Positions 6,001-19,114 of a stretch of DNA of 64,000 bases are shown here, in pieces. A program made the position numbers and the translations under genes. Source of the stretch: a candidate division FCPU426 bacterium. GTDB lineage: Bacteria; Oederibacteriota; JAAXVQ01; JAUVAV01. The stretch is from assembly GCA_040756875.1 (NCBI GenBank), contig JBFLYH010000001.1, forward strand, positions 768,001 to 832,000, given 5' to 3'. The first letter of the stretch is position 1. The number at the start of each line of letters is the position of its first letter. Under the pieces are notes generated by a model, which had not been told where the DNA came from, ran no database searches, and was given only the letters and a program-made list of their open reading frames with translations.

Positions 6001-9000
6001 GAAGGGCGTGCCTGTGATCGCCTACCGGGCGGGCGGTATTCCGGCGCAGATCGAGGACGACCGCACCGGCTTCCTGCTTGAAGTGGGTGATGTGCGCGGC
6101 GTAGCCCGCCGCTTGCTCTGGCTGATGTTGAACCCGTTTTCTTACCGGCGCATGAGCCGGGCCGCCGCGGAAGAGACTCGCACGAATTACATCATTCAGG
6201 ACAACGCCGCCAACCTGATCAGCCTGGGCCTGCTCCTGCGCTCAAACCGCCTGACGCCCGAAACCCTGGCCCAGGCCTCGGCCGGCCGGGATGAACACCA
6301 GGTCACCGCCGACCTGCGCGAGCAGGTGATGGACGAGGCGGAAACGCGTTTCGGGGCCGGCGCCCGGGAAGCGCAACGCGGCCCGAATTGGCCTGCCGGC
6401 CTGATGCCCAAGTTCAGGGCAAAAGTCATCGATGAGTACGGGCGTTTCCACCCCGGAGCAGCGGCTCGGGCGATCCTACAGGAAAACATCTGGCTGCTGC
6501 CATGGGTGGTCCTGACCGGCGTCGCCACCGTGGCGGCAATGGCAGTAGCCGGGCAGGGAAGCGCGCTCGCGCCTCTCCTGCGCATCCTCATCCCTTCGCT
6601 CAGCGGCCTTTTCTACGCCGCCACCTTCACCCGCAGCCACGGTCCGACCGTGGTGGCTTTCGATCCCGACGAAATGCGCTATGTAGAGATTCCCAGGACC
6701 TGGAAGCATACCCTGCAACTGTTCGGCCTGGGTTTGGGCATGGCTGCCCTGACCCTCGGCGGATTGGCCCTGGGCAGCCTGGGCCTGCTCGGGCTGGGCG
6801 CGGTCAGCAGCCTGGCCATCGGTGTATTGACGGGCTTCGCGGCCGCTTATGCGCTCCACTTTGCCTGGAATTTTTCCTTTGCCCGCCGCCTGCCGGGTCT
6901 GGCCACGGGCTCGGCCCAACCCGTGCCCAAGCTGCCGCCATTGGAGAGCGTGGTCGAACTGACCGTGGAAAGCCGCCTCTCGCACGAATTGATCAACCGT
7001 ATCCGTGCCAACCTTAGTGATACAGCCCATCCCGAGCGGGCCCGGCTGGATCAGGAACTGTCCGCGTTGGGTGACAATCCCGAACTGGCGCTGCAATTGC
7101 TGGCCATGTCCGGCTCCATCGGTGGCATCGGCCCGCTGCTGACCGACCGGATCGAGGATTTGGGCAAGCAGGCGGGGTTCCGCAAGGTCGTGGGCATCCG
7201 GCCGCTCTACCAGCAGGTCTGGCGCCAGCAAGTCACGCCCAGCCAAAACGGCGGCCCCGAACAATTTTCTCTCTCCAAGGTCGAAGTCGGCGACATGCTG
7301 CGTTCGGCCCTGGAACGCACCCAGGTTCCGGGAACCGACCAGGACCTGACCCTCGAAGTTCCCATGTATGACGGCCGGGTGCGCAAGGTCGCGGTCTGGC
7401 AGGAAACGGATCCGAAGACCGGTACGGTCATGTACTACCTCGACGATTACGCGGCCGGCGAGGCCGAGCCCAATGTCTTTGACGTGGTGTATTCGGGATA
7501 TGCGGATAAAAACGCTTCGGCCCGCTTCCTCGGGGATTTCGAAGCCAAGAAACGCATCTCCATGGAGCAGAGCTACCTGCTCGGCCGCGCCTATTTGGCG
7601 CTTCTGGAAACCCTGCAGATTCAGCCTGACGCGGTGATCCTGTCCGAAATGAGCGCCGGTACCTTCGCCATTCCTCAAGTCGTCACGGACAAGTACCAGC
7701 ATAGCCCGGCCACGGCCCGCGCGCGTTTTATCTTCAACGACCATACGCCCCTGGAATACGCCCACGTGGTGGAACACAAGGATTTCCTGGCCAAATACCC
7801 CCTGGCGCACGAGGTGGTGGATCTGCTTACGGACGCCCAGGGGCAGGTGCACATCACCAGCCTGATCGCCACCCTGGCGGAGAGCGTGTACGGCGTGGCC
7901 CGCCTGCACTGGCAAACCATGCGCAACATGCCGGCTTACCAGCGCGTGCGCGACAAGCTGCGCTACATCACCAACGGCGTCAACCTGGATTTCTGGCAGT
8001 GGGGCGGTTTCCGGAATTGGGAAAAACTGAGCGACGAGGATTTATTAAAGGAAAAAGACCGGGCGCGTTCCGCCATGCTCAACCTGCTGGCCGACCGGCT
8101 GGGCCGGGACGACGCCTGGAAAACCCAAATGGCGGGGAAGCGTATTTTCAACTGGACCCGCCGGGTCGTGCGTTACAAGCAGCTGTACCGCCTGCTGGAG
8201 ATGGTTCGCGATCCGGAGCTGCGCCGGCAATTCCTGGAAAGCGACGCCGTGATCCTGTTCGGCGGCCGGGTGCACCAGGACGATACGCCCAGCCAGCAGC
8301 TGGTGCAGGAGTTCCTGAATGAAATCCACGCCCATCCCGAACTCCGCGACCGCCTGATTTTTTACCCCAATTTCAACACCCTGGACATGCAAACCATCGC
8401 CGCGGGCGTGGACGGCACCATCATGGGCGCCAACGAAGGCCGCGAAGCCTCGGCCACGGGCTTCATGAAGGTCCTGGCCAGCGGCGGCATTGTCATCGGC
8501 TCTCCGGACGGCGCGGTCCCCGAGAATTGCGTTTTTCTGGGCGAAGCCCAGCAGTACGCCAACCAGGTGCCCGCCGAAGGCATGCAGTTCTCCGCTGATC
8601 CGGCGGGGGCCAATGCCGTCTTGCTGCCTTACGACACCATTGACCATGAAGACGGCGGGCGCCGCAGTTTCTCGCCCCAGGCCCTGGTTTCAGCCCTGGC
8701 CCTGGCCAGCAGGACGCTGGCCGACCCTCAGGCCCGCGTTGGCATGATGCGCCGCGCTCTGGCCGAATCTCCGCGCCTCAGCACCAAGCGCGTGGTCCGC
8801 GAAATGACGTCCCTGTTGCGGGAGCTCGAGCAGATCTCGGATTCCCGCCAGCAGGCCCTGGCTTCCGGCCGTTCCGAGGGGGCCGTCATCCTTCCAACCC
8901 TGTCGTATGACCGTCTGAAAAAATTCTTGAATTTTCCCGTCGGAAATTTTGTCTGGAAGACAGAAGAAAGCAAGCTGGTTCCCGTCAGCCGCCCTGCGGG

Positions 9001-12000
9001 CGTACCCGAGGGAACACTGCGCGCCTTGTGGCATGAATTCAACTCCCTGCGTTCCCTGGGCGCCCTGGACGAACCGGTGCTGCTTTTCAACGCCATGGGC
9101 AATCCTGAATACAATGCCCAGCCCGGCCAGTCCGGTGGGTATCTCCTGGGTTATTTACGCAAAGCCTGCTCTGAAAACGAGCACTTCAAATTCCTGCCCA
9201 AAGCCAGCCAAGACGAAGTCCTGGGCACCCTGGACCGTCTGAACGAACGTGTCAAGCAAGCCCGCGAGCAGGGCGACCGCAACGCCATCATTGAGGCCCA
9301 CTATGAAGCCATGGGCCTGGTGCAGGAATGGATTCAGGCGGAAGTGCCATTCTTGCATTTCGAATGGCTCCGGGACGGCATCAGGCATTACTATCTCAAT
9401 CCCATCACCAGCATGGGCGGTTTTTTCTTCCGGTTGCTGAAAATGCAGCCGGAATATTTCGCCACCCGCATTCCCGGCACCGATCAGACCAGGGGCGAGT
9501 ATATAACCGGCATCCTCCGCAGCCAGGAAAAGTGGATTAACGAATCTCTCGAAACTCTGATCTGGAGGAATGCCGCCGTTTATGCCGACGATCCCGCGCA
9601 GCTGGACCAGGCCGTGCAACGAATCCTGCAGGAAACGTTCGAGATCATGGGCCAGTCGACGTCCACCTTGGCAGGCCTGGTCGCGGAAATGCCCAAAGCC
9701 GAATGGAACACCCAGACCCTGAATACCCTCGCGGTCATCCAAAACGAAATGCAGCGCATCCAGACGCAAAATAATTATCTGCGGGACGTAACGCGCGTTC
9801 ATTTCGGCCCCGCCCTGCCCACCAGCGCTTTTTGGGCGGTGAGGCGCGCGCTGCAGCGTTTGGGCGACCGCGCGGCGGCCATCACAGTTGACCGGCAGGT
9901 CGAGCGTTTGCCCCTGCTCGTGGATCCGGACCGGTTCTCAGCCTCCCTGGAGCATTTATTGGCCCTGGCCCTTGAAAACAATGCCGGAAAAATCAAATTA
10001 AGCCTGGGGCAGGAAAACCACCATTTAGTCATCACCATCGAAGACAACGGTAGCCTGTACACCGCCGAGGCATTGCAGCAGGCCACGCACATACCCTTTC
10101 TTGCCACATCCCTTGTGCCGCGCAACAGCGGTCTGGAGTATTTGGAAGCGCGCCAAATGGCCGAAATGTACGGAGGCGAGCTGCAACTGTCGCAGCACGA
10201 TAAGACGTTCGTTTTCAGATTGACGCTGCCGCTGTTCACCGAAGCCGGGCAAATTGTCGAAGTGCCGGATACGCAGTTATGGAGCGCCTGGGTCCATCTG
10301 ACCACGAGCTTGGCCGGCGCCCAGAGCGAGGCGGAAATACAAAGCAGTCTCATGCAGGCCCTGGACGACTTTTTCGGCTTCCGCCGCGCCAATTTTTACC
10401 GCCTGAACCGGGCCCCGGAAGGCGACTGGCGGTACGTCAGCACCGGTCGTTACGGTCTGCTCGGCTTTTCGACCGCCTTGAACGAGCAGCCCTTTGAACG
10501 GCCGGACGAAAAATACCATCTCCTGCGCCGTTATGAACAATCCCGGCTCGAAGCCGACCAGGTGCAGGTCATCGGCAACCGGGTGGACGATCCACGCGCC
10601 AATCCCCGGCACATCCTCAAGGACATCTTCAAATACAAACTGTTCGACGCCACGATCCAGTGGCAATACCGTTTCTTCGGCTGGTTGAACAACGATTTCA
10701 TCGCCTCTCTCGTCGGCCAGCGGATCTCCCGCTGGATCCTGCGTTTTACCTCCACGGCCTGGATTCAAGACGTCAACCGCTCCGTCACGCTCCTGTTCGC
10801 GCCTCCGGGCGAATCCGCAACCAGCATGCTCTTTATCCTGCCGTCGCGCACCATCACGGCCGAAGAAGAGCAACTCCTGGGCCGCATCACCCGTTTGGCC
10901 GGACAGGCCTACCAGCGCCTGGGCCGTCAGCGCCTGTTGACCCAGAATTGGACGTCCCTGGCCGAACGTCAGCCCGCCCAGGACGAATTGAACGCCCTGC
11001 TGGAGCAGGGAAGGGTTCTTTTCCAGCAATACCGCAAGCAAATTCAGGGAGTGCTCAAACCGCTGGCCAAAGCCGGGGAAGAGCAGAAAGAAGTGGCCGC
11101 TCAACTTTCCACCTTCTCCGCCGAAACCGAAGAATTATTGGCCCGGTTTTTCAGCCGGGCGGATGTTTCGCCGCGGGTTCCGGTTCCCGAAACCCCCCTG
11201 GATACTACGGATCCAGAGGCCTTTCTGGAGGATTTCACCCTACGCATAAATAAAGCGCAAACCGCGGATGAAATCGCCGGCCTTTCGCGCCTGGCCATCG
11301 AGTTGCTCGACACCCTGGCTTGGCCGCAGGCCCAGCGCGATCACCTGATCGCAGTTTGTAACCAGTTGGTGCGCGCGTCCACGGAAAACCTCAGCAATCT
11401 GGAATTGTTGGCCTTGGAACAGCCCCTGGCCGCCCAATTGGACAAACTCGCGGCATTGCCGGCCGACACGCTGCCGCCCTTGCTGAAACGACGTTTGGCG
11501 CAGACGCGGGACACGCTCCAAAATTTCCACCAACGTTTGCGTCTCTTGCAAGGGCTCAATCCCGCCGTTTTCACGGCCTTCGACTACGTCAAACGCCTTT
11601 TTGCCGCCCGGAACGCCCCTGACGTCCTGGAAAGTCTGTTCGAGAGCGTGCTTAACAATACTCCCTTTGCGGGCCTGAATATCTATTCCGTGCGGCCGGA
11701 TGAACGCGGCGCCCTCTGGTACCGAAGCCTGCGGCGCAGCGGCATGTTCGGCCGTTCGGCTGCTCGCAATTGGCTCGCACTCTCCCCGCGCAGCGAAAAA
11801 ACCAGGGCTTTGTCCCTGGCCGAACAGGGTCCGATCGAAGAACGGGACTCCAGCGGCTCCCTCATTTACGAGCAAGGCCGCGGCCCGCAGGGTTTCGACT
11901 ATCTGTACATCGCCCAGCGGCACGAAGCGCCGTTCGTGGACCAACGCGAATTGCTGCGCGACGTCGTCCGTCACTCGGCTTTGCCGGCGCCAAGCTGGCT

Positions 12001-15000
12001 GCGCGCCTTTGGCGAGAACGTGGCCCTGGCGCTGCATCACGGCGTAGCGCGGTTCTTTGTACGCATGATCGTTTTTATCCGTCCCGCGGCGGTCAGGCGG
12101 GTGGACGAAATCTTGTACCTGCCCGTGCTGGACGCCCAGGAAAAACCGCAGGGATTGATGCTGCTCAACAATTGGCGCAATCGCCAGCCGTTATTCGCCG
12201 ATGACGCCCAGCGCGCCCAGTTCCTGCAAAGCCTCGCGCTGCTGCGTTTTCTGACCACCAGCCATCTGACCGCCCTGGACCACCAGCAATCCCTGCTGAC
12301 CTCGGTCGAGGAACTCCGTCTGGTGACGAGCGAGCTCAACGGAACCTTCCGCAGCGCGTTGTTCGGACGTTTATCCGGTTTGCAGCGGCTGTTGTCAGAA
12401 GGTGATTTTCTCCTCCAATTGCTGCCTCAGGCCAAAACCGCCGGATTGATTTCCAGTCGCCAGGCCAGAGTCACCCGGCGCTGGCTGAACCTGCTGCCCA
12501 AACTCCCCGGCCAGCTCGAACAGCTCCTCTCCAGAGTGGTGGAAATAAACGCCGTTGCGCGCGCTCAAACAGAGGCCGCCGGCGCCGAAGCCGAAGCCAG
12601 TCTGAACAAGCTGGAATCACGCACGGATTTGGAGCCGGATCGTCCTTTCGAAGGCGACGAGCAAACGGTATTGTCCGAATTCAACCAGCGGATGGCTTCG
12701 GCCCAATCCTCGGCCGAACTCGAACAGATCGCCATCGACTCCTTGCGCCAGGCGGGCAATAACCTCCTGCTGCGCGGCCTCATGCTGGTCCAATTGCGTC
12801 TGGCCTGGGAGCGCATCCTGCGACTGCAAGCGCTCCGCGCGGAACAGCAGGCGCTCCAAGAAGCGCTGCGCGCTCTCAGCGAAACATTCTCCAGCCTATT
12901 CGGGCAACTGGAAGAGGGCTATGCGGTTCTCGGCCAGCTTGGCCGGCTGGAAACGGACCGAGAAAAAATCCAGGCGGCCAGGCAGCAGCTGAGCGAATTG
13001 GCCGCGCTTTATCCGAACGTGCAGTTGTTCACCGCCAGCCTGAACCGGGTCCTGGCGACCCGGGCGCGGCTGCTGACCGAAACCGACGACCGCCTCCTGC
13101 CGGTCACGCTTCCCGGCAACCAATACTTGCTTCTCTCCGATGCGTTGACCTCCCGTCAGCCGGAACAGGAACTGCAACGCATTATTCGCTACGGATTATT
13201 CGGCCAGCTCCCCGAATACCGGCACCTCGAACTGGCGCAGGAACGCCGGGATTCCTGGCCCCGGTTTGCACTGGGGCTGACCGACACCCTGGGGCAGCTT
13301 CGGTCCGGTTTTTGGAAACACGCACGGCGTTTGCGGAGAGCATCGCCGTTCGGCGCATCGCTCCGGCTGGCGCAACTCCGGTCGTGGTCGGGCCTGATCC
13401 GCCAGGCTCAGCTCGACGGCCATGAACACCTGTTGGATTTCCTCGTTCTGCTCCTGCCCGAACCCGGAGTGGCCGTAACCCTGCCCGCTGCCCGGCAGCA
13501 GCTTTCTGCGCTGCTGGCGCGGGGCCTGGCGGAAAGGTACGCCCGCGAATCCGGCCGGCCCCTCAACCCGGATCTGGCGGTCAAAATCCTCCAGACCTAT
13601 CCCCGGATCGTATCGCACCTCCAGGGCGATCTAAGTTCCGGAGCCTTGCAGCGGATGCTCGAGCCTTTCCAGGCGGACGAACTCACCCTTCTGGCCCTGA
13701 TCACGCTCCTGGCCTTGAAAAACAGCGGTCTCGAAGGCGCCCTGACGCGCGAACGGGCCGCATTCCTCCTGGGACACCTGGGCAATTTGGAAGGCTATGT
13801 TCGCTGGCTGCGTACGGAGTTGGCATCGCCGCCTGACCAGCTGGCGGATCGGCGTCTGCATGCCTGGGCGTATCAGCCTGAATCGGGTCTGACTCCCGAA
13901 GAGAGCGGCGCCAAGCTCGACCGGATGCAGCAGGGCCTTCACCAGCGCATCCCCGAAGCCGAACGTCCTGATTTCGACCGCTGGCTGGCACAGGCGGACT
14001 TCAGCCGCGCGGCCTCCAATTTCATCCATCTCTCGGCTGACAACGCGGCCAAGTTGCTGGTCCTGCTCTGGCGGGTGCAGCAACTCGCGCCCACCGACCA
14101 AACCATTCTCGAGGCCGAAGGCCAAACCGGCCTGCTGGAGGCGGCCCTGCAAAACTTCGACGAAAAGGCCTGGGAGGCGCATTATCCGCGCCTTATTCAG
14201 GACTTGCAGGAAAAACAGAACGGGGAACTCAATCATCTCAAGTGGCAGATCAGCACCGAGGCGCCCAATGTGAGTCAATTGAGCGTGAACGTCGTGGGTC
14301 TGACGACCGGTCTCCGGCCTGCGCCAACCGAACCCCTGCGCAAACCCTCCCGCTTCGGCAAACGCGGCCGCAACTTGCTCTTCCTGATTTTGGCACTGAC
14401 CGCTGCAGCCGCCTGGCTGACCTTCTCGCCCGAGGCGAGTTGGGAAATCGCCGGCAAAGTCCCGGCCTGGGACTCGCTGGATCAAACCGCCCGCGCCGCC
14501 ATCGCGCCTTTCTTCGGCGGCCTGCTCCTGTCACCGGAAAACGCGGAACGCCTGCGACGTCTTTCCGGGAGAACGGCCCAGTCGCTGCAGAGGATCTGGA
14601 ACCAAATCCGCGGTTTGCGGTATACGCCCCTGGACTCCCTGCGTTTCGACCGGCGTCTGGAATCCGGCTCCATGTCGAACGTCTATCGCGTCGAATACCA
14701 AGGCCGGAAATGGGCGTTCATCCAAAACAAGCTTCTGGATGAGCGGGACCCCAATCGGCCGCAAGCCGGATATACAGCCGAGGCTTTGCGCGACCTGCAA
14801 TCCGGCATCGAGGACACTGTTAAAAATTATCGCCTCTACCAGGGCTTGAACTATCGCGGCCATGCCATCGCGCCGGAAATCGGGCCGCTGGTTATGGACC
14901 GCAATGGCATCGTGGTGGGGTACCTGAGCGAGGAAATACCCGGGAAGGATTTGGGGACCCTGGTTCGTTTCGGCGCCATCACCCCGGAACAGCTCGAAGC

Positions 15001-18000
15001 CGTTCTGGTGCAGTTGCGTGGTCAGCTGGACGTGCTGCACAAGCGCGGTTTGGTGCACGGCGACACGCGCCCTGAAAACGTACTCGTGGCCTTCACTCCC
15101 GAAGGCGAGCCCATCGCCCGCTTTATTGATTTCGATCCGGCACGCGGTCGCTGGACCGTCAAGGACGACCTTACGCTTTTTGAGGAACGGCTGGTCACTT
15201 TGACCCGCTTTGAACTGCAGCCTCAAAACGTCGCCCACATCCGGGAGCTGGTGGCGGATGAATTCGAACGGCAGCAATGGCTCGCGGACCGCGAAACAGC
15301 CTATCAGGAACTGCGGAAAGTCCGCCTGACCTGGCACCGGCTGATGGATCAACTGACCGACACGATCAACCAGGACGAACTGCAAAACCTGATGTGGGAC
15401 TTTCTCGGGCAATTCGATGCCTTGCCCAAGGAAAGCCGCTTGTGGACCCGATCCGACGTGGCACTGGCGAGGCAACGCTTGGCCGAATCTTTCCCGGCGT
15501 TTTTCGGGGAACTGAATCGCCTGCTGGACGAACCCCTGCGCACCTATCAGAACGACCTCCAGTCGGCCGTGACGAACCTTTTATCCACCTGGCTCACCTT
15601 GACCGGGCCGGAATTCGACGCCAAAGCCAGGGATATTGTGGCTCAAAAAGTCAAGCAACTGGCCGATTCATCCCAACTGCCGGCCACCATGCAGGTTTTC
15701 CGGCTGGTGCCGGCCTCCAATGCACCACGATCCATTTTAGGAACACTCTTCGTTAATGAAACGGGCATTATCCGCCTCGACCTCATCCCGGCACTGCTGA
15801 CCAGTTTGGCCAACTGGATACTGCGGCGGCCGAACGCCGAATGGACATGGCGCGTGCCGGACAGCGGCCAGGAAACGCCTTACAGTCGCATTTCGGCGTT
15901 TCGATTGAGCATTCTCGACCAAATGCGGCCCTTCTTGCGCACTTTGGGCCGGGTCAAACGCGCCTTCTACCCAGCCAGCGCCGGCGATGCCTCCACCCTC
16001 CTCCTGGTTGCGGATCCGGACCGGATGCTCCTGGTGGATAAGCTGCCGTTCGGAACCCCGGAGGATTTCGCACGGGTCGAATCCATGCGCGAAGCCTATT
16101 GGGCGGATAAAACGGGCGAAGGGAAGGAAGGCTGGTCGAAGACCAAACCCCTGGAAAATATAGGCGTCTTAATCGGGCCCCTGGTCTGGGACCTGCAAAT
16201 GATCGGCGCCCAGAACATCCGCGTCACGCGTTTCTCGCCCACGGAACACCGCATCCGTTTTGTCTGGGGCCGCACCCCCGAGGAAGCGCGGCCGCGTGAA
16301 ATCCTCTTCATCAGCAACTGCGATTTGGAATATCCTGAAAATTATCCACCTTCCTTGATCAGGTGGTTAAAAGCGAACTACGATTTCTACCTGCAAAAAA
16401 GCGGCGAAAAGCTTCATCGCCTGGACGCCATGGATTATCACCTCCGGTTCCTCAAGGATACCGGCCTGCTTTTATCCGACCTTCTGAACAGGGAAGTCAT
16501 GATCGACGAAAGTTATAAATCCGTACCCTGGCCTTTCAATCTGGAAGGATTTGGCATCGGTTATGGGGAACATAATTTCCTGCGCCAAAAGAACCCGCGT
16601 TACATCATTCGTTTGACCAACCAGGTCAGGACGAACGAGGCCGGTTTCACCACGCCGGAGACGGCTGCCGCGCTCTCCGCCCTGGTCGGGCTGGGCCTGC
16701 TGCTGTCTGCCGGTCTGGGGTTGGTCTTCGGCGGTTTGAGCCTGGCAGCCGGGGCCGCTGGTTTGGCCTTGGGCGGTCTACTGACAATAGGTCCCGCGTT
16801 GATTTATTACTTAAATGCCCGTCGGCCGGAAGCTAGTCCCACGGGCCGCCAGCAACCCTCTGCCGCGGAAACCGGCATTTCCGATGTGGAACAGGCCCTC
16901 CAGTTGGATCAAACCATCTTGCCCAGGGACCCCAACGAGCCTTTCCGTCAATCCGAGTCCAGGACGGTCCGCGCGCTCCAAGCCTGGTTTGGGGATGTGC
17001 TTTTCGCCGGCGACCTCCAGACCGTCGGACGACCCGGAATCCGGAGGCCGTTCGAAGGCGCCCAAGCTGTTTTTGCTTCAGCCTGGACCATGGCACACGC
17101 CCTGGTCATGCTGATCGCCAGCACGCGGCCCGGCCAGCAGTTGGTCTTCGACCCGCAAAACCCGGACTTGTTGGATATGGCCCGCAAACAGTCTCTCCCG
17201 GATGCCGAAACCGCGGCCGCATTTGCCCGCAAGTATGCCGTGCAAGTGACGCCCCTGCACATCAGGCCTGTATCCAGCCTCAAGACCGCAGGCTGGGCGC
17301 GATTCCGGCTGTTCCTGAACCTCAATTCCGCCTACCAGGAAGACGGGGCGAACCTTCAACCCACCTTGTATCTGCCTGATAACATGCTGCTGGAATTGCA
17401 AAAGGGCATTCCCACCACGACGGGTTTGCGGGGATTGGGGCAGCGCTGGCTTTGGTATGGAAACCGCTTCCTCCTTGGTCTTCTGGCCCGATATCAATCC
17501 TCTGCCTATTTTTCAGATCTCCGCCAGGGGCTGGCCTGGAGCCAAAACCAAATGGCCGCCAATCAGGATTTCACCGAAGCCCGGGCCTTGGCCTTGGATC
17601 ATCTGGGCGGCCAAGAACGGGCCGTTGATTATTACTCCCGCCGGCCGGCCGCGAAGACAGCCCTGAGTCCTTATGATGTCATTAAAATATCGGTCAGGTT
17701 GATGCAAACCGGCGCCAGGCTCCTCGGAGAACCAGCTGTCACACCCTGGCAGGTTGTGGAGAACCGCTTGGACGCATCCCTTCGCGAAGGTGCTGAACCA
17801 GGCATTGAGACTCTTATGAAACTCCTTTCGACCGCCCCGGCCTTGGATTCCGCCGAAACCGCCGTTTTAAGGACCCTGACCGAAGAAAGCGCCGGTTTGC
17901 AGGGCAATTTGCAGCCTTGGGTCCTCAGGGATATCGCTGCCTCCCTGATCGACGGACAAGCCCGGTCATTAGCCGACAGCGGGGCATTGCCAACGCCCTC

Positions 18001-19114
18001 GGCTTTGAAACCGGATGAAGAGGTTTATCTGCTGAGTTTGCCCCAGACTTATGCCCGAATGATTGCAGAACTGGACCGTCTGGCCAAGCTTGCCGCGGCC
18101 AAAGCCGGCGCCCAGCCGGCCTTGCAGCCCTGGTTGGAAAGGGTGGACCAGTTCCGCGAGGCGCTTGTAATGGCTTCGACCTTGCGTCCCGGACAACTGC
18201 AGGTCCTTGCTCCTGATTTGGCCGCATCCCTACTTGGCGAAACCCTGGCTTTGGCCGGTGAAGAGGGAACTGCGATGGTGGATTTGGGACAGGACATCGA
18301 TTCCCGTCGCGTAGGCGTTACAACCGGCGAAGTCATTGCCAGGGAAGTTGCTCAGGGCGTGCAAATGCCCAGCAGGGAAGTCTACCAAATCAGCGGGCCT
18401 TCCCTGGAAACGATCGCCTCAAGTCTTTCCCAGTCCCAGCTTCCTACCCGGGGATTGTTCGCACAAGCTTATGAAGGTTCTGTCCACGTGACGATTGCGC
18501 GGCCTGAGGTCAGGTTTCAAACCTTAAGCCGGATGATTATTTCGATATCCCGCCTGCTTCCGGTCTCCGCGCAAAGAACTCTCCATCGTTTAATAATACG
18601 CTTTAATCCCAGGGGTTATCTAGACATTATACTAAACGGCGTCATGGTCGCGCCTTGGTCAATCTTGTTGCAGAATCACTCCAGCCCCCTGGGACAAGCC
18701 TATTTGCGCTGGGCCCAGCAGCAGACCCCGTCTTCAGAAAGCCAATTGCTTAGGGCCATGATCAGAGTGTTAAAATATCAAAAAATCGAAATCGAAAATA
18801 CCCAGGGCATATTGGCAGACTCCCAAGTGTCTGGCATGCGCGCTGACCATCAGGCTTCTTTAATCGCTTTCTTCGAAACCGCCCGCAGAATTTCCGCCTT
18901 GTCTCCAGTGCGCATTGGCCGCTGGGATTCGCTGCCCAGCGGCGTACATCGCGCAGACATCCTCATGCCCGGCTTGTTATCCCAACCAGGCAATATGGGT
19001 ACCTGGGGCGCTCTTATGGATGTCATGCGCGGTTTCGAAGCCATACGCATCGAAAATGACGTTTTCAAACACCGCAGACGTCAGCTGTTCCGCACTTCGG
19101 CACAAGCAGCGTAA
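1..19114 (+). CDS. Giant multidomain membrane-anchored protein (>=6363 aa, 5'-partial: frame open to window edge)
   Basis: Uninterrupted ORF 23..19114. Upstream in-frame codons 2-22 (VSPLRLA) contain no stop, so the true start lies outside the window. Many recognisable enzyme motifs occur in this frame, with strong GC3 bias. Confidence 0.95.
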   Translation, partial: VSPLRLAVAVATIAVLGVFSFLLSPDSVLSTLSIWGAGAGVLTLAGVYAPRLYYGWRLARPRAPVLDPRYLDTQLTRLVADLEKNGGLPDGYQRPRFKVLPRQAIRTSFWKGLRVGYGSSGVVYLHPNFLSLPIPAQRAVLLHEIYEAHQRGHVLATLLELASYLRSAVVYLRPAARRFRRIERIGFTAKADPLARRRQIERLLHEIDRELQQPGSGRLPQMAVISDLHADAKRFSELLGDALRQIAGFQGSLNPDRSIEQQMNEQGLSLKDMPGMIVVNGDLLDRGEDGLRCFNLVQELRRVAPDRVVYIVGNHDLWAAGNLLGIHLPWYRGYEFHGDVEAERLVAQQRRKNPGQVNDFDWWTARLAEYNADQAAWQKDEFGQRMKSARASFMDLYKRVGQGWSEAQKDTWEEFTGNFARIQVKDPAVGLNAIGRTSVAWWQRIHSELMDHRRAREGVADAEELQAWDEAIVLAAQITAAYEERMAAALAEGKWWVRVLQGINTQAYASMEWWCQDWSSHKGWGEALIAELNQRQLYVDGKKVTQANYTRSRIIQDMGQFFLENFNLHVFDAYGNLVTHGMLPVDPDGQIRLAFKGKTYTGREVFAGLAAMSEAVKKSRGDRRKMLETFRLVNDWYSDKTTRIKPMHVLAYLRDIGQHVFQASLRVYNWFTGHNTLATLGMSFRHRDGDYSMFFIDKGMSPRFGGEGSYALVGNGIRFRGFVADRSRAVVDSPLTVTQQALIENPGMPREEYLRLMHRALSEELALLPAGPLAEARKPAREITTEAMLHNRLLDQVFARGSIGDNERDRQVLAAFLVPDHPFKAEAFERLGRLDDEEVLARVDDLLARDQGDSPNVSFGQHAFSPFLQRHLKLRELALHPTSGQRDLRQILFSSMTIAYTPSVMNLMSEKGREVLVKTSIEANYLLLRALAILARDPERLQLTAAQVRELSQYLQSPDVIRELESFREDQALTGLTAPTTVTSLLALSQLYLPADTPEKRASLGRLVALIDQLRAESPLWAEMLQDPTLSAAAQVERIRRLNASAEQAVLPARAELRLSFWRLLAGAAVAVGVGISLSLTLSPDVVVRTVSLWGAASGLAVMAFFAPRLYYVWRLVRPRAPALDPDQAKKQLAELIADLARRSGLPEGYTPEITILPAQTLGSIFRRGFMIAKAEKGRLSLHANFLSLPWPIQQAVVLHELVEASGQGHWRATWAEFRSYLRSRPFRPSYPQNIFANDFTVHERQESGATWNRYRVTYKDTDYFFQVRNDLDARDSQHFRLERLAPDALTQHALDVVLNGLNLQRFRLLRFRHRLVAPRVEAFVMNENGVVVGYLTPYWPGERLSDLVRAKSLSPAQLGQVLRQLHGQLEMMHANRLMHGDPHFDNVLVRLPSPWVPRFLARRFPRLFPVVAHFVNFKPSEEFNPTADLFKFRLLVDRASRETLDGRAAEFIPDLVPRPEVSPLAGRLADAQITAALRREGDRVTVLVVNHRTGATVYQRQFALAPEDPVGTIRDELTYVLRQLGARIDTAGITGWPEAEFNDLHAILWNDLDIKAFSPETSPPGFFTDRADPRAVADAARRLFYETAEVVRVEQDGLVHVNRLGNLSDFETVLGPERLARHLALADMARAEDLRMVFINSTPKGGGVAIMRHGIQRWAELLRLPLRWLVMSPDETGTIFDVTKLKFHNVLQLAQDNPLTAEDTRRLDAWTQDQARRFQQHLAWGNVFVIDDPQPAGLIRLIKQSNPQAKIIWRCHIEFNVEEINRPGTTAHETWKYLADKIGPSDLFLFHEKAFVPAGFESGHMVLQMYPAMVPLDGMNKPLRPIQMDYYLRLFNEIMGEQGQTPLDPDRPILTQIARFDPSKGIPDVLESFRLLRRRLAPFRFLAEWSIPVFHFLAGWDIPLAGRLERRLVDLARYLKPQLVILGNGANDDPEAMPLYNLAQSIKTQPEYARIADDIKVVLAPHNDQLLNAVLRWSRVAFQLSHREGFEFKVTEALQKGVPVIAYRAGGIPAQIEDDRTGFLLEVGDVRGVARRLLWLMLNPFSYRRMSRAAAEETRTNYIIQDNAANLISLGLLLRSNRLTPETLAQASAGRDEHQVTADLREQVMDEAETRFGAGAREAQRGPNWPAGLMPKFRAKVIDEYGRFHPGAAARAILQENIWLLPWVVLTGVATVAAMAVAGQGSALAPLLRILIPSLSGLFYAATFTRSHGPTVVAFDPDEMRYVEIPRTWKHTLQLFGLGLGMAALTLGGLALGSLGLLGLGAVSSLAIGVLTGFAAAYALHFAWNFSFARRLPGLATGSAQPVPKLPPLESVVELTVESRLSHELINRIRANLSDTAHPERARLDQELSALGDNPELALQLLAMSGSIGGIGPLLTDRIEDLGKQAGFRKVVGIRPLYQQVWRQQVTPSQNGGPEQFSLSKVEVGDMLRSALERTQVPGTDQDLTLEVPMYDGRVRKVAVWQETDPKTGTVMYYLDDYAAGEAEPNVFDVVYSGYADKNASARFLGDFEAKKRISMEQSYLLGRAYLALLETLQIQPDAVILSEMSAGTFAIPQVVTDKYQHSPATARARFIFNDHTPLEYAHVVEHKDFLAKYPLAHEVVDLLTDAQGQVHITSLIATLAESVYGVARLHWQTMRNMPAYQRVRDKLRYITNGVNLDFWQWGGFRNWEKLSDEDLLKEKDRARSAMLNLLADRLGRDDAWKTQMAGKRIFNWTRRVVRYKQLYRLLEMVRDPELRRQFLESDAVILFGGRVHQDDTPSQQLVQEFLNEIHAHPELRDRLIFYPNFNTLDMQTIAAGVDGTIMGANEGREASATGFMKVLASGGIVIGSPDGAVPENCVFLGEAQQYANQVPAEGMQFSADPAGANAVLLPYDTIDHEDGGRRSFSPQALVSALALASRTLADPQARVGMMRRALAESPRLSTKRVVREMTSLLRELEQISDSRQQALASGRSEGAVILPTLSYDRLKKFLNFPVGNFVWKTEESKLVPVSRPAGVPEGTLRALWHEFNSLRSLGALDEPVLLFNAMGNPEYNAQPGQSGGYLLGYLRKACSENEHFKFLPKASQDEVLGTLDRLNERVKQAREQGDRNAIIEAHYEAMGLVQEWIQAEVPFLHFEWLRDGIRHYYLNPITSMGGFFFRLLKMQPEYFATRIPGTDQTRGEYITGILRSQEKWINESLETLIWRNAAVYADDPAQLDQAVQRILQETFEIMGQSTSTLAGLVAEMPKAEWNTQTLNTLAVIQNEMQRIQTQNNYLRDVTRVHFGPALPTSAFWAVRRALQRLGDRAAAITVDRQVERLPLLVDPDRFSASLEHLLALALENNAGKIKLSLGQENHHLVITIEDNGSLYTAEALQQATHIPFLATSLVPRNSGLEYLEARQMAEMYGGELQLSQHDKTFVFRLTLPLFTEAGQIVEVPDTQLWSAWVHLTTSLAGAQSEAEIQSSLMQALDDFFGFRRANFYRLNRAPEGDWRYVSTGRYGLLGFSTALNEQPFERPDEKYHLLRRYEQSRLEADQVQVIGNRVDDPRANPRHILKDIFKYKLFDATIQWQYRFFGWLNNDFIASLVGQRISRWILRFTSTAWIQDVNRSVTLLFAPPGESATSMLFILPSRTITAEEEQLLGRITRLAGQAYQRLGRQRLLTQNWTSLAERQPAQDELNALLEQGRVLFQQYRKQIQGVLKPLAKAGEEQKEVAAQLSTFSAETEELLARFFSRADVSPRVPVPETPLDTTDPEAFLEDFTLRINKAQTADEIAGLSRLAIELLDTLAWPQAQRDHLIAVCNQLVRASTENLSNLELLALEQPLAAQLDKLAALPADTLPPLLKRRLAQTRDTLQNFHQRLRLLQGLNPAVFTAFDYVKRLFAARNAPDVLESLFESVLNNTPFAGLNIYSVRPDERGALWYRSLRRSGMFGRSAARNWLALSPRSEKTRALSLAEQGPIEERDSSGSLIYEQGRGPQGFDYLYIAQRHEAPFVDQRELLRDVVRHSALPAPSWLRAFGENVALALHHGVARFFVRMIVFIRPAAVRRVDEILYLPVLDAQEKPQGLMLLNNWRNRQPLFADDAQRAQFLQSLALLRFLTTSHLTALDHQQSLLTSVEELRLVTSELNGTFRSALFGRLSGLQRLLSEGDFLLQLLPQAKTAGLISSRQARVTRRWLNLLPKLPGQLEQLLSRVVEINAVARAQTEAAGAEAEASLNKLESRTDLEPDRPFEGDEQTVLSEFNQRMASAQSSAELEQIAIDSLRQAGNNLLLRGLMLVQLRLAWERILRLQALRAEQQALQEALRALSETFSSLFGQLEEGYAVLGQLGRLETDREKIQAARQQLSELAALYPNVQLFTASLNRVLATRARLLTETDDRLLPVTLPGNQYLLLSDALTSRQPEQELQRIIRYGLFGQLPEYRHLELAQERRDSWPRFALGLTDTLGQLRSGFWKHARRLRRASPFGASLRLAQLRSWSGLIRQAQLDGHEHLLDFLVLLLPEPGVAVTLPAARQQLSALLARGLAERYARESGRPLNPDLAVKILQTYPRIVSHLQGDLSSGALQRMLEPFQADELTLLALITLLALKNSGLEGALTRERAAFLLGHLGNLEGYVRWLRTELASPPDQLADRRLHAWAYQPESGLTPEESGAKLDRMQQGLHQRIPEAERPDFDRWLAQADFSRAASNFIHLSADNAAKLLVLLWRVQQLAPTDQTILEAEGQTGLLEAALQNFDEKAWEAHYPRLIQDLQEKQNGELNHLKWQISTEAPNVSQLSVNVVGLTTGLRPAPTEPLRKPSRFGKRGRNLLFLILALTAAAAWLTFSPEASWEIAGKVPAWDSLDQTARAAIAPFFGGLLLSPENAERLRRLSGRTAQSLQRIWNQIRGLRYTPLDSLRFDRRLESGSMSNVYRVEYQGRKWAFIQNKLLDERDPNRPQAGYTAEALRDLQSGIEDTVKNYRLYQGLNYRGHAIAPEIGPLVMDRNGIVVGYLSEEIPGKDLGTLVRFGAITPEQLEAVLVQLRGQLDVLHKRGLVHGDTRPENVLVAFTPEGEPIARFIDFDPARGRWTVKDDLTLFEERLVTLTRFELQPQNVAHIRELVADEFERQQWLADRETAYQELRKVRLTWHRLMDQLTDTINQDELQNLMWDFLGQFDALPKESRLWTRSDVALARQRLAESFPAFFGELNRLLDEPLRTYQNDLQSAVTNLLSTWLTLTGPEFDAKARDIVAQKVKQLADSSQLPATMQVFRLVPASNAPRSILGTLFVNETGIIRLDLIPALLTSLANWILRRPNAEWTWRVPDSGQETPYSRISAFRLSILDQMRPFLRTLGRVKRAFYPASAGDASTLLLVADPDRMLLVDKLPFGTPEDFARVESMREAYWADKTGEGKEGWSKTKPLENIGVLIGPLVWDLQMIGAQNIRVTRFSPTEHRIRFVWGRTPEEARPREILFISNCDLEYPENYPPSLIRWLKANYDFYLQKSGEKLHRLDAMDYHLRFLKDTGLLLSDLLNREVMIDESYKSVPWPFNLEGFGIGYGEHNFLRQKNPRYIIRLTNQVRTNEAGFTTPETAAALSALVGLGLLLSAGLGLVFGGLSLAAGAAGLALGGLLTIGPALIYYLNARRPEASPTGRQQPSAAETGISDVEQALQLDQTILPRDPNEPFRQSESRTVRALQAWFGDVLFAGDLQTVGRPGIRRPFEGAQAVFASAWTMAHALVMLIASTRPGQQLVFDPQNPDLLDMARKQSLPDAETAAAFARKYAVQVTPLHIRPVSSLKTAGWARFRLFLNLNSAYQEDGANLQPTLYLPDNMLLELQKGIPTTTGLRGLGQRWLWYGNRFLLGLLARYQSSAYFSDLRQGLAWSQNQMAANQDFTEARALALDHLGGQERAVDYYSRRPAAKTALSPYDVIKISVRLMQTGARLLGEPAVTPWQVVENRLDASLREGAEPGIETLMKLLSTAPALDSAETAVLRTLTEESAGLQGNLQPWVLRDIAASLIDGQARSLADSGALPTPSALKPDEEVYLLSLPQTYARMIAELDRLAKLAAAKAGAQPALQPWLERVDQFREALVMASTLRPGQLQVLAPDLAASLLGETLALAGEEGTAMVDLGQDIDSRRVGVTTGEVIAREVAQGVQMPSREVYQISGPSLETIASSLSQSQLPTRGLFAQAYEGSVHVTIARPEVRFQTLSRMIISISRLLPVSAQRTLHRLIIRFNPRGYLDIILNGVMVAPWSILLQNHSSPLGQAYLRWAQQQTPSSESQLLRAMIRVLKYQKIEIENTQGILADSQVSGMRADHQASLIAFFETARRISALSPVRIGRWDSLPSGVHRADILMPGLLSQPGNMGTWGALMDVMRGFEAIRIENDVFKHRRRQLFRTSAQAA
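23..520 (+). other. Giant-protein module: TM hairpin + HExxE zincin-like repeat, copy 1
   Basis: Hydrophobic pair ending APRLYYGWRL, then LHPNFLSLP...AVLLHEIYEAHQRGH; homologous to copy 2 at about 3180-3680. Confidence 0.6.
665..2180 (+). other. Giant-protein module: calcineurin-like metallophosphoesterase resembling class-3 fructose-1,6-bisphosphatase
   Basis: Motifs ISDLH, NGDLLDRG, VGNHD, GNLVTHGMLP, TGHN, IDKGMS occur in the order of Firmicute-type Fbp. Confidence 0.7.
3180..3680 (+). other. Giant-protein module: TM hairpin + HExxE zincin-like repeat, copy 2
   Basis: LSPDVV...APRLYYVWRLVRPRAPALDP...LHANFLSLP...AVVLHELVEASGQGH. Confidence 0.6.
3700..4330 (+). other. Giant-protein module: atypical (RIO/Bud32/Kdo-like) kinase fold, copy 1, probably degenerate
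   Basis: VVGYLTPYWPGERLSDL...MHANRLMHGDPHFDNVLV; the DFG position reads VNF. Confidence 0.65.
4430..6240 (+). other. Giant-protein module: GT4 trehalose phosphorylase/synthase (fungal-type signature)
   Basis: INSTPKGGGVAIMRH, KFHNVLQ, IDDPQP, WRCHI, ARFDPSKG, NDDPE, DQLLN, EGFEFKVTEA, GGIPAQI. Confidence 0.85.
6470..6890 (+). other. Giant-protein module: multi-TM block with CPBP/Abi (CAAX protease)-like motifs
   Basis: QENIW ... FTRSH (FxxxH) ... HFAWN (HxxxN) across about 4 hydrophobic helices; motif 1 (EExxxR) is degenerate. Confidence 0.45.
7100..8820 (+). other. Giant-protein module: GT35 alpha-glucan (glycogen/maltodextrin) phosphorylase-like
   Basis: IGGIG, FNDHTP, GVARLH, ITNGV, RRVVRYK, GGRVHQDD, EASATGFMK (PLP lysine position retained, 8468-8470), SPDG. 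Confidence 0.85.
9370..10235 (+). other. Giant-protein module: degenerate histidine kinase (HisKA + HATPase)
   Basis: H-box-like RHYYLNPITSMGGF, second DHp helix IQNEMQRI, ITIEDNG, GLEYLEARQMAEMYGGEL, FRLTLP; N and G2 boxes eroded. Confidence 0.65.
10270..12830 (+). other. Giant-protein module: two tandem GAF-like + helical units (internal duplication)
   Basis: RRANFYRL..RYGLLG..DEK..ILKDIFKY vs AGLNIYSV..RSGMFG..SEK..LLRDVVRH; DPEAFLEDFTLRINKAQTADEI vs DEQTVLSEFNQRMASAQSSAEL. Confidence 0.5.
14620..15220 (+). other. Giant-protein module: atypical kinase fold, copy 2
   Basis: ESGSMSNVYRV...VVGYLSEEIPGKDL...LHKRGLVHGDTRPENVLV...ARFIDFD; paralogous to copy 1. Confidence 0.75.

Follow-up and report, generated by a model that had tools for sequence, protein, structure and literature searches.

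A prepilin-like junction motif inside a giant bacterial protein as a possible head of a recurrent membrane hairpin

Giant bacterial proteins of 5,000 to more than 100,000 residues have only lately been catalogued. In one of them, encoded in the 64,000-nucleotide stretch of DNA analysed here (the window), a sequence that looks like a prepilin (class III) cleavage site lies thousands of residues behind the start of the reading frame. Does this site mark a point at which the giant chain is cut, or does it serve another purpose at the membrane?

A prepilin-like junction deep within a multi-anchor giant

Following the frame beyond the window into its genome (G000) gave 8,807 codons from stop to stop (G000:C1:760691-787114). 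Five Pfam families scored above threshold in the giant (Metallophos, TreT_GT1, Glycos_transf_1, Phosphorylase and HATPase_c), and a Kyte-Doolittle scan found about ten hydrophobic membrane regions, which are kept in the orthologue of genome G001. A length above 5,000 residues, together with several enzyme domains that are unrelated to one another and with many membrane helices or hairpins, makes the giant a multi-enzyme, multi-anchor membrane protein. A second Gly/Leu-rich hairpin, 48 residues long at 4675-4722, carries no such motif. The giants of G000 share a conserved N-terminal membrane segment ending in ...P-x-[LV]-[TA]-W-A-F-E, and some of them carry EE-x-x-F-R...H stretches, which we take to be CPBP/CAAX-protease-like. 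The features of the locus, all on the forward strand, are as follows.

2..19114, + strand: giant gene, of which the 3' 6,370 codons lie in the window (ORF listing)
14369..14431, + strand: single membrane segment, giant residues 7227-7247, with the strongly basic N flank KPSRFGKRGR (Kyte-Doolittle; kept in G001)
14933..15145, + strand: weak protein-kinase/APH-like catalytic-loop region, HGDxxxxN...DFD, between the single membrane segment and the hairpin (sub-threshold in Pfam: Pkinase 20.6 bits, cut-off 31.7; APH 20.0 bits, cut-off 23.2)
16610..16636, + strand: basic n-region ahead of the junction, with Arg at 16610-16612 and 16628-16630 (sequence)
16637..16660, + strand: junction motif E-A-G/F-T-T-P-E, a class III signal look-alike; the slash marks the junction here and below (sequence, pattern match, orthologues)
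between 16645 and 16646, + strand: putative scissile bond of the junction motif (position in the motif)
16655..16729, + strand: predicted membrane helix 1, P19-F43 of the translation of window 16601-19111 (AlphaFold2, DSSP)
16730..16735, + strand: predicted Gly-Gly turn of the hairpin (break between the modelled helices)
16736..16819, + strand: predicted membrane helix 2, L46-A73 (AlphaFold2)
16820..16825, + strand: putative Arg-Arg clamp closing the hairpin (invariant column R75 in a 10-sequence module alignment)
16847..19111, + strand: conserved C-terminal module of about 750 residues (homology search, AlphaFold2)

The translation of window 16511-16930 in the giant frame reads ...RLTNQVRTNEAGFTTPETAAALSALVGLGLLLSAGLGLVFGGLSLAAGAAGLALGGLLTIGPALIYYLNARRPE..., and NEAG/FTTPE with the hydrophobic run behind it occupies 16637-16813. 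Read from the DNA, Gly(-1) is encoded at 16643-16645, Phe(+1) at 16646-16648 and Glu(+5) at 16658-16660. An earlier note on this DNA had reported a prepilin motif inside the giant protein with about 820 residues on its C-terminal side, and both points were borne out: the motif starts at residue 7984 of the frame, Gly and Phe are residues 7985 and 7986, and 822 residues extend from Phe(+1) to the stop. A prepilin signal is expected no more than a few dozen residues from the N-terminus and preceded by a short basic leader, whereas this one begins at 7984 of 8,807. The full pattern match claimed by the same note was also found. The pattern was PROSITE PS00409, the prokaryotic N-terminal methylation pattern, in the form x-G-[FYLIVM]-[ST]-[LT]-[LIVP]-E plus 14 small or hydrophobic residues. 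The giant contains one full match, and no other was found when all six frames of the genome were searched from stop to stop for ORFs of 60 aa or longer (4,127,087 residues); the core G-[FYLIVM]-[ST]-[LT]-[LIVP]-E likewise occurs once across the 8,807 residues. By chance, 0.018-0.019 matches are expected per genome, a figure derived from 2,303 runs of 14 or more hydrophobic residues in ORFs of 100 aa or longer. A single match is unlikely in one genome, yet chance matches are expected somewhere among thousands of genome-equivalents, and the conservation and recurrence of the motif weigh more than the lone pattern match. The pattern itself discriminates poorly here, as the real pilin of this genome (AGFTFIE) fails it and the giant passes.

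The hydrophobic stretch after the motif is 51 residues long by Kyte-Doolittle (giant residues 7991-8041, window 16661-16813), and its counterpart in G001 has 55. AlphaFold2 and DSSP placed a helix at 19-43, a turn at G44-G45 and a second helix at 46-73, with a pLDDT of about 50-60, so that the hairpin shape is a low-confidence prediction. A pilin signal is expected to form a single N-in/C-out span of about 20 residues, whereas these 51 residues are modelled, at that low confidence, as helix-turn-helix. No Pfam match to glycine-zipper families was obtained with the 70-aa motif piece at E<=1. The C-terminal module was modelled with a pLDDT mostly above 85 over residues 340-830. With the 837-residue model of the C-terminal region, Foldseek against the PDB gave no match at E<=0.001, and VIA-align wide gave a best Z of 5.9 with no pilin among the best 50 matches listed; because the model is so long, single domains may have escaped these fold searches, which place the module in no family. 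Homology matches to the module begin at query residues 438-470 and were found in 15 of 61 genomes (10/10 of family f1, 4/4 of f2 and 0/46 of other families). The module thus appears common to many giants and, among the 61 genomes searched, to occur in this order only.

Both flanks of the hydrophobic stretch are basic, which by the positive-inside rule suggests that Gly(-1) faces the cytoplasm. A Gly on the extracytoplasmic side, which the earlier note took to speak against its own reading, received a divided answer that did not refute it: the basic flanks favour a cytoplasmic Gly, whereas the upstream single segment 7227-7247 with its basic N flank gives the opposite parity to an in-in hairpin. 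Because these parities contradict each other, segment counting was dropped as a test of whole-protein topology.

The lineage's own pilin and prepilin peptidase

The major pilin of the lineage is encoded at G000:C2:532547-533041 and begins MRSCRRPEAG/FTFIE.... Its junction reads [EQ]-x-G/F-T-[FY]-[IL]-E in 10 of 11 aligned orthologues, the pilin of G001 having Ala at -1. At the sequence level, the head of the giant's hairpin mirrors RRPEAG/FTFIE: both have a basic n-region, [EQ] at -3, Gly at -1, Phe at +1, Glu at +5 and then a hydrophobic helix. The two differ in that a prepilin leader has about 10 residues while the giant's motif lies 7,985 residues from the frame start, and in that about 21 hydrophobic residues of a pilin run into an amphipathic helix and a globular domain, in place of the giant's 51-residue Gly/Ala/Leu-rich predicted hairpin.

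Pilin models gave little for the giant. The 70-aa motif piece hit no Pfam family by hmmscan at E<=1, and among NCBIfam models at E<=10 it did not hit TIGR02532 and hit only TIGR03750 below threshold (13.8 bits, cut-off 70.75). The PF07963 scan proposed in the earlier note did not help its case: in the search of the genome, with 13 candidates scored and 2 matches, the genuine pilin was reported with 25.1 bits and the giant's motif was absent. A TIGR02532 search of the same genome (4 candidates, 1 match) likewise reported the real pilin and not the giant. Profile-profile comparison of the hairpin module with the pilin N-terminus by hhalign covered 15 columns with 53% identity, a pairwise E of 0.005 and a probability of 7%, which points to motif-level similarity and is not evidence of common descent; homology between the two was rejected on this ground. 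The "pilin-like anchored unit" suggested earlier is therefore unsupported, since the segment is modelled as a hairpin, no pilin fold was seen among the structure matches listed, PF07963 and TIGR02532 are silent, one orthologue lacks the segment and the paralogues are free of the motif.

The earlier note had also asked for pilD or tad genes, and these were present in the form of one conserved A24 peptidase and a tad-like locus with Flp genes. The peptidase is the only A24 enzyme of the genome, a TadV-like protein of 175 residues (PF01478, 66.3 bits). Of 15 genomes from the order, 14 carry it as a single copy, and both Asp columns are invariant in 14 sequences. It adjoins two Flp-type pilin genes with G/QGLVEY and G/QSLTEY on contig C2 and must already accept both G/F (pilin) and G/Q (Flp) substrates. 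The G-x4-E spacing of the Flp genes is the same as that of the giant; unlike the Flp pilins, the giant has Thr rather than Tyr after Glu(+5) and is not a small all-helical pilin, and its gene lies on C1, not near the tad-like locus on C2. An A24 N-terminal methyltransferase domain (A24_N_bact) was not found above threshold in the genome, the best hit reaching 16.8 bits against a cut-off of 23 and containing an internal stop codon, which leaves the N-methyl-Phe terminus expected earlier without support. A complex prediction of the A24 peptidase (alignment A4) with a 90-residue motif segment (A1 residues 148-237), run without controls, scored 0.00 against a mark of 0.32 and counts neither way. 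No pilus parts were found among the 20 ORFs scanned downstream of the giant, which comprise housekeeping, sensor-kinase, methyltransferase and OmpA-like genes and one T9SS-tailed protein, and the three T2SSE ATPases of the genome lie away from the giant.

Conservation and recurrence of the head

In orthologues at 59% and 38-43% identity the motif is conserved, and its counterparts are SQAG/FTTLE in G001 and GLG/LARLE in G004. Conservation of G(-1), F(+1) and E(+5) had been set beforehand as a possible refutation and did not refute the motif: Gly(-1), a hydrophobic +1 residue (Phe in G001, Leu in G004) and Glu(+5) are retained in each of the two segment-bearing orthologues, and the 20 residues ahead of the motif diverge. 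In the third orthologue, P0003 (40% identity; 5,061 aa), the domains on either side align but the entire segment between them, some 85 residues, is missing, and paralogues with the same C-terminal module carry no such motif. The hairpin segment is thus dispensable, and cutting at it cannot be essential to the C-terminal module. Further orthologues were few: metagenome contigs (alignment A1) gave 72 pattern matches with none confirmed, the genome-contig scan gave the G001 locus only, and an exhaustive HMMER search against 1.84 billion representatives returned 45 proteins at E<=0.001. P0003 alone among these 45 aligned as an orthologue across the region ahead of the hairpin.

We then read the boundaries of membrane regions in 38 giants of this order. 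The sequence [EQ]-x-G-F was found at 10 of 136 hairpin-length regions and at 1 of 269 shorter membrane regions of the same giants; in non-giant ORFs it was found at 21 of 2,866 membrane regions (0.73%), against a composition-based expectation of 0.74%. The head basic-[EQ]-x-G-F is therefore enriched ten-fold at the hairpins of giants and is more specific than a generic membrane-segment flank, although it sits on a minority of the hairpin anchors. The flanks of the module hairpins (n=10) contain 2.3 K+R per 15 residues on the N side and 2.7 on the C side, the same as the other 126 hairpins (2.3 and 2.5; background 1.55).

In one genome, two giants contain three AGF...E heads between them, and in another genus the homologous positions still have Gly-Phe. 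Gly(-1) was kept in all position-homologous comparisons possible (8 sequences, 3 groups), a count that is largely circular, since the pattern or profile used to find most heads already requires G-F. Glu(+5) is present in 9 of the 22 distinct heads read (about 40%) and is lost at homologous sites, as in RRGQAGFATVE (G000) versus RSGEAGFVTLP (G003), and in RRGEAGFISAE versus GGQAGFIQIS (the other repeat copy) and GEGGFINLN (G003). A profile of the internal heads also retrieved, from other families in the phylum, ORFs that have such a head at a pseudopilin-like N-terminus, for example ...ARRGQAG/FTLVE in L111.

Readings of the motif and their consequences

The reading that we favour, and to which we give about an even chance, is that the motif is the uncleaved signal-anchor head of a recurrent hairpin tether. 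The hairpin would be one of about ten membrane anchors that tether the 8,800-residue multi-enzyme protein to the inner membrane. The upstream basic residues would remain cytoplasmic and Gly-Phe would sit at the membrane interface, with T-T-P-E capping the start of helix 1, which would cross the membrane; the Gly-Gly turn would reverse the chain, helix 2 would return, and the Arg-Arg pair would clamp the end of the hairpin. A two-helix hairpin of this kind would keep the C-terminal module on the side of the upstream chain, unlike a pilin. The sequence, its conservation and recurrence and the flank charges are observed; both this topology and the absence of cleavage are what we infer, with the head acting as an uncleaved internal signal-anchor, and the head may resemble a class III signal because both are built alike, from a charged n-region, Gly, an interface aromatic and a capped hydrophobic helix. 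Against a purely anchoring role stand the specificity of the head, the way it copies the lineage's own pilin junction, the presence of an A24 peptidase and the low confidence of the hairpin model.

A possible, though on balance unlikely, reading takes the motif for a genuine class III signal within the chain. On the cytoplasmic side of the membrane, the TadV-like A24 peptidase would then cleave the bond between Gly 7985 and Phe 7986 and free an 822-residue hairpin-anchored C-terminal protein, giants with the same head would likewise be polyproteins, and neither methylation nor pilus assembly would be expected. The motif has every element of such a site, from the basic n-region through [EQ] at -3, a small residue at -2, Gly, Phe and Glu(+5) to the hydrophobic helix; it is kept in both segment-bearing orthologues next to a diverging sequence, is ten-fold enriched at hairpin heads (10/136 versus 0.73%) and matches the lineage's own pilin junction over the 15 hhalign columns. 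In addition, the profile of internal heads picks up genuine pseudopilin-like signals at N-termini in other parts of the phylum, the peptidase is conserved beside two Flp-type pilins, and the basic flanks fit a cytoplasmic Gly. Whether giants remain one chain or are cut into pieces is named as an explicit open question, with no cleavage points known, in bioRxiv 10.1101/2023.11.21.568195. The silence of PF07963 and TIGR02532, the lack of the segment in one orthologue and of the motif in paralogues, the restriction of the head to 10 of 136 hairpins and the largely circular conservation count argue against cleavage, and the segment 7227-7247, if truly N-in/C-out, would place Gly outside. Moreover, we know of no A24 substrate with thousands of residues before Gly, and no paper on such a substrate was found in the portion of the literature that was searched. 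In its general form, that basic-[EQ]-x-G/F hairpin heads are internal substrates of a single promiscuous A24 peptidase and that the order's giants are polyproteins which are split on the cytoplasmic side of the membrane into enzymes with anchors of their own, the proposal is conceivable but doubtful.

If the head is recognised or cleaved, another membrane-embedded system might be responsible, either a non-A24 intramembrane protease or a factor devoted to inserting or sorting the giants. The further family-specific membrane motifs of the G000 giants suggest dedicated handling, and the conserved head is carried by a hairpin, not by the shape that A24 substrates usually have; since no specific candidate enzyme or factor was found and the closest sequence match of the motif is a class III junction, we consider this improbable. 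Very improbable in our judgement is plain coincidence, a low-information pattern falling on the start of an ordinary hydrophobic segment under no shared constraint. Chance matches are expected in a large scan (0.018 per 3.2-Mb genome), the pattern passes the giant and fails the real pilin, and the profile models are negative, but the motif is kept in orthologues at the identities given above, and the coincidence reading is already disfavoured by the recurrence of three AGF...E heads in two giants of one genome, the ten-fold enrichment and the retention of Gly-Phe at homologous positions in another genus. That translation also starts internally, shortly ahead of the motif, and so yields a prepilin of its own, some 830 residues long and with a short leader, is scarcely credible. 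An in-frame TTG ten codons ahead of Ala-Gly (window 16613-16615) would give an 11-residue leader, but no Shine-Dalgarno-like purine run occurs in the 20 bases upstream, the corresponding stretch of G001 (...TARPQGPASSQAG directly before Phe) has no in-frame Met, Val or Leu codon, and the frame is continuous and conserved across the junction; a separate prepilin from such a start was rejected for these reasons.

Membrane giants of this kind have been described in Omnitrophota, where two preprints (bioRxiv 10.1101/2023.11.21.568195 and 10.64898/2026.06.07.730766) report multi-enzyme giants anchored in the inner membrane by many membrane helices. Like the protein described here, those giants have thousands of residues, glycosyltransferase group 1, HATPase_c and kinase-like domains and many membrane helices. 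According to the preprints, pilus or type II secretion genes often lie near them, whereas no pilus genes were found among the 20 ORFs downstream of our giant, and its C-terminal module was found in this order only (15/61 genomes, 0/46 from other families). The word "prepilin" has no occurrence in either preprint.

A conserved, ten-fold enriched head that copies the lineage's own prepilin junction makes the question of cleavage in giants concretely testable. If such heads are cut by the A24 peptidase, the motif would be the first class III signal to lie within a protein chain and would mark the first defined cleavage point of a bacterial giant. Prepilin peptidases would gain a new class of substrate, and there would be a rationale for why giants repeatedly occur together with pilus or type II secretion genes. 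If the site remains uncut, as in the signal-anchor reading that we favour, a recurrent anchor module of the order's giants has nonetheless been defined, and a PROSITE-style prepilin match within a long membrane protein would be no evidence for a pilin.

Position of the motif and its conservation

The giant frame spans 8,807 codons stop to stop in the source genome (G000:C1:760691-787114); its first ATG is codon 15. It is open at the 5' end of the window, which holds 6,370 of its codons. Its translation over window:16511-16930 reads ...RLTNQVRTNEAGFTTPETAAALSALVGLGLLLSAGLGLVFGGLSLAAGAAGLALGGLLTIGPALIYYLNARRPE..., and the motif A-G|F-T-T-P-E starts at residue 7984:

16643-16645, + strand, Gly(-1)
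16646-16648, + strand, Phe(+1)
16658-16660, + strand, Glu(+5)
19112-19114, + strand, stop codon of the giant, 822 residues counted from Phe(+1)

As the earlier note had stated, the motif fits in full the prokaryotic N-terminal methylation pattern (PROSITE PS00409). It was the only full match in the giant and in the genome (3.22 Mb; every six-frame ORF of 60 aa or longer). Based on 2,303 maximal runs of 14 or more small/hydrophobic residues in ORFs of at least 100 aa and the residue frequencies preceding them, 0.018 full matches per genome were expected by chance, or 0.019 when conditioned on Glu before the run. A lone match is improbable in one genome, yet expected somewhere across a large scan; it is therefore weak evidence, and conservation and recurrence were then sought.

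Profile models were also applied. With a 70-aa piece containing the motif, Pfam hmmscan returned no family at E<=1, and the NCBIfam scan gave a sub-threshold match to TIGR03750 alone. In own-genome searches, PF07963 (13 candidates scored) and TIGR02532 (4 candidates) recovered the real pilin at C2:532949-533029 with 25.1 and 18 bits, respectively, and PF07963 gave a second, weak match beside the A24 (prepilin peptidase family) gene. Neither search reported the giant, so the PF07963 scan proposed for the motif did not back it. The PROSITE pattern was passed by the giant and failed by the real pilin (AGFTFIE), showing that it is a poor discriminator here.

Among the 15 genomes of the order, the region upstream of the predicted hairpin was found only in G001 (59% identity; head SSQAG|FTTLE) and G004 (38-43%; GSGLG|LARLE). 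The proposed conservation held for Gly(-1) and Glu(+5) in both, with Phe or Leu at +1, while the preceding 20 residues diverge. A third orthologue (P0003, 5,061 aa, 40% identity), from a library of 1.84 billion proteins, aligned on both sides without the entire ~85-residue segment. Scans of metagenome and genome contigs gave no further orthologues.

Recurrence of prepilin-like heads on hairpin-length stretches

Above threshold, Pfam found in the giant a metallophosphoesterase, a trehalose-synthase-type GT1 N-domain with glycosyltransferase group 1, a glycogen-phosphorylase-like segment and a HATPase_c domain; two kinase-like stretches were both sub-threshold. By Kyte-Doolittle analysis there are about 10 hydrophobic regions, all kept in the 8,820-residue G001 orthologue. 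Besides the 51-residue stretch after the motif (7991-8041) and a single span (7227-7247), these include a segment at the N-terminus and several stretches of hairpin length, among them a motif-free one of 48 residues at 4675-4722. In an AlphaFold2 model of window:16601-19111, built from a 20-sequence alignment (mean pLDDT 77), the stretch after the motif is predicted to be a hairpin (helix 19-43, break Gly44-Gly45, helix 46-73; pLDDT only 50-60), with the putative cut site 4 residues ahead of helix 1. The giant's combination of enzyme domains and hydrophobic regions is the architecture described in the accessible text of two preprints on inner-membrane-anchored multi-enzyme giants (bioRxiv 10.1101/2023.11.21.568195; 10.64898/2026.06.07.730766), in which the term 'prepilin' is absent.

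When G000 was scanned with a relaxed pattern (G-hydrophobic-x3-E, then 12 or more hydrophobic residues), 16 matches were obtained, four of the form AGF...E: the real pilin (mrscrrpeAGFTFIE, 9 residues past a start codon), the window site and, on contig C4, two sites within a second giant (tarrgqAGFATVE and atrrgeAGFISAE) that each precede a stretch of hairpin length. Heads without Glu(+5) were found in the C4 giant and a C3 giant (GEAGFATLG twice, GQAGFIQIS and GQGGFITAP). Ten giants of relatives supplied SQAGFADLS, AQAGFVSPE and SERGFASLG, all in G014, besides the head of the G001 orthologue, and the library protein P0004 carries AQAGFVNSA. The C4 giant, a 6,812-codon open frame on the minus strand, fills its whole 20.4-kb contig (L072) and is an internal tandem duplication with a unit of ~3,756 residues: residues 49-104 recur identically at 3805-3860, the remaining membrane regions follow in the same order in both copies, and the prepilin-like heads are not alike in the two.

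For an unbiased count, 10 giants from relatives were pooled with the 28 G000 frames of 2,000 aa or longer (239,984 residues in all), giving 405 hydrophobic regions, 136 of hairpin length (at least 40 residues). A head was counted when [EQ]-x-G-F fell in the -14..+8 boundary window of a region. Heads occurred at 10 of the 136 hairpin-length regions, including one orthologue pair and one identical repeat pair, and at 1 of the 269 shorter ones; the composition-based expectation was 0.74% per region, and G000 frames of 200-1,999 aa gave 21/2,866 (0.73%). Through flanking-domain searches, the positions of two C4 heads were located in a giant of G003, where RSGEAGFVTLP corresponds to RRGQAGFATVE and GEGGFINLN to RRGEAGFISAE. 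Across genera, [EQ]-x-G-F is retained at homologous positions, and +5 varies.

The profile of the ten heads (A3) was searched over 99 genomes of the phylum. Its 18 best matches (E<=1.3e-5), 10 of them training rows, all lay in five genomes of the order, in open frames no shorter than 2,491 aa. Weaker matches included N-terminal pseudopilin-like ORFs of other families, e.g. MKKQKTLTGRKG|FTLLE and ...ARRGQAG|FTLVE, and one false positive, a Rossmann-type motif. With one match (G003:C13:110837) left out, the new matches added MQGGFARLE, NEAGFFRLG, NQRGFILSP, SERGMVDVK, SISGFKTIE, KQSGQITAE, SEAGFISRN and SEQGSATLP. Glu(+5) is present in 9 of 22 distinct heads; Phe(+1) in 18 and [EQ](-3) in 20 are largely circular fractions, since 13 heads came from a pattern demanding [EQ]-x-G-F and most others from a profile trained on them. 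The motif is real rather than a chance match, and is one case of a recurrent hairpin-head module.

The cell's pilin system and the fate of the C-terminal module

The real pilin (C2:532547-533041, 164 aa) adjoins a PilT-like ATPase and ORFs read as PilM/N/O-like. Orthologues were found in 15/15 genomes of the order, with the junction [EQ]-x-G|F-T-[FY]-[IL]-E in 10 of 11 aligned; the G001 orthologue (L053, G001:C1:759361-759630) differs from the other 10 in having Ala for Gly at -1 (MRNLWRSEKA|FTFIE). Each genome also has a second pilin-like paralogue, which in G000 (C3:80658-80834, minus strand) has a hydrophobic N-terminus without a G|F...E junction. A search for prepilin peptidase or tad genes, as earlier suggested, found one A24 peptidase of 175 residues (PF01478, 66.3 bits) adjoining two Flp-like genes (junctions G|QGLVEY and G|QSLTEY). 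In 14/15 genomes it is present as a single copy, and both of its Asp columns are invariant. No A24 N-terminal methyltransferase domain scored above threshold in G000, so the N-methyl-Phe terminus earlier envisaged is not expected. Profile-profile comparison of the heads with pilin N-termini aligned 15 columns at the junction with 53% identity (pairwise E 0.005, probability 7%); the likeness is one of motif and not homology.

Charged residues per 15 residues at the N and C flanks of hairpins
Module hairpins, opened by [EQ]-x-G-F (n=10): K+R N 2.3, C 2.7; D+E N 1.3, C 0.8
Other hairpins (n=126): K+R N 2.3, C 2.5; D+E N 1.3, C 1.0
Background: K+R 1.55; D+E 1.68

By the positive-inside rule, both hairpin ends would be cytoplasmic; the single span at 7227-7247, whose N flank is very basic, has the opposite parity. 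With both ends cytoplasmic, Gly(-1) would be reachable by the A24 enzyme. The motif may be a true internal A24 site, which we consider the less likely reading; in the accessible literature, no internal site for a prepilin peptidase was found to be reported. Under the same topology, and unlike a pilin, the C-terminal module would stay cytoplasmic. The part of the earlier proposal in which a pilus machine would handle a pilin-like unit was not supported. The most economical reading, to which we give about even chances, is an uncleaved internal signal-anchor that would tether the conserved C-terminal module, the likeness to a prepilin signal arising from shared construction.

The ~750-residue C-terminal module (window 16847-19111) is common to many giants of the order, most of which lack the motif ahead of it. 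It was found in 15/61 genomes searched (f1 10/10, f2 4/4, other families 0/46). Residues 340-830 of the AlphaFold2 model form a confident fold (pLDDT mostly >85). Foldseek gave no match in the PDB at E<=0.001, the top Z by VIA-align was 5.9, and no pilin was among the matches listed by either. In alignment A2, the order-restricted module ends in a conserved tail, ...RRRLFRSxxQAA. It may serve the giants as a shared domain for assembly or targeting.

Other features of the giants

At 59-65% G+C, the giant gene resembles the G000 contigs (58-62%), whereas downstream housekeeping genes, including ArgJ, two tRNA synthetases, YebC and sensor kinases, have only 43-57% (window 1-18000 versus 18001-64000); the giants may be unlike the rest of the genome in composition. 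The 849-residue protein encoded at window 45438-47984 (minus strand) combines Ig-like domains with a C-terminal sorting domain of the T9SS (Por_Secre_tail, 32.4 bits).

Nearly all G000 giants have in common an N-terminal, conserved hydrophobic segment ending ...[LF]-P-x-[LV]-[TA]-W-A-F-E (e.g. ILPHVTWAFE, LAPLLTWAFD, LMPALAWAFE), located in the window giant at G000:C1:760775-760852 (L029:85-162). One possible role is that of a family-specific signal peptide, its small-x-Ala site being like that of signal peptidase I; another is that of a sorting signal for the giants. The C2 giant starting at 97805 (minus strand) has repeated membrane blocks (residues ~7020-7065, 7630-7665 and others) containing GEELIFRVAP...FLVAH, a sequence that may resemble CPBP/CAAX-type intramembrane protease motifs. 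If this identity is true, some giants would bear their own membrane proteases.
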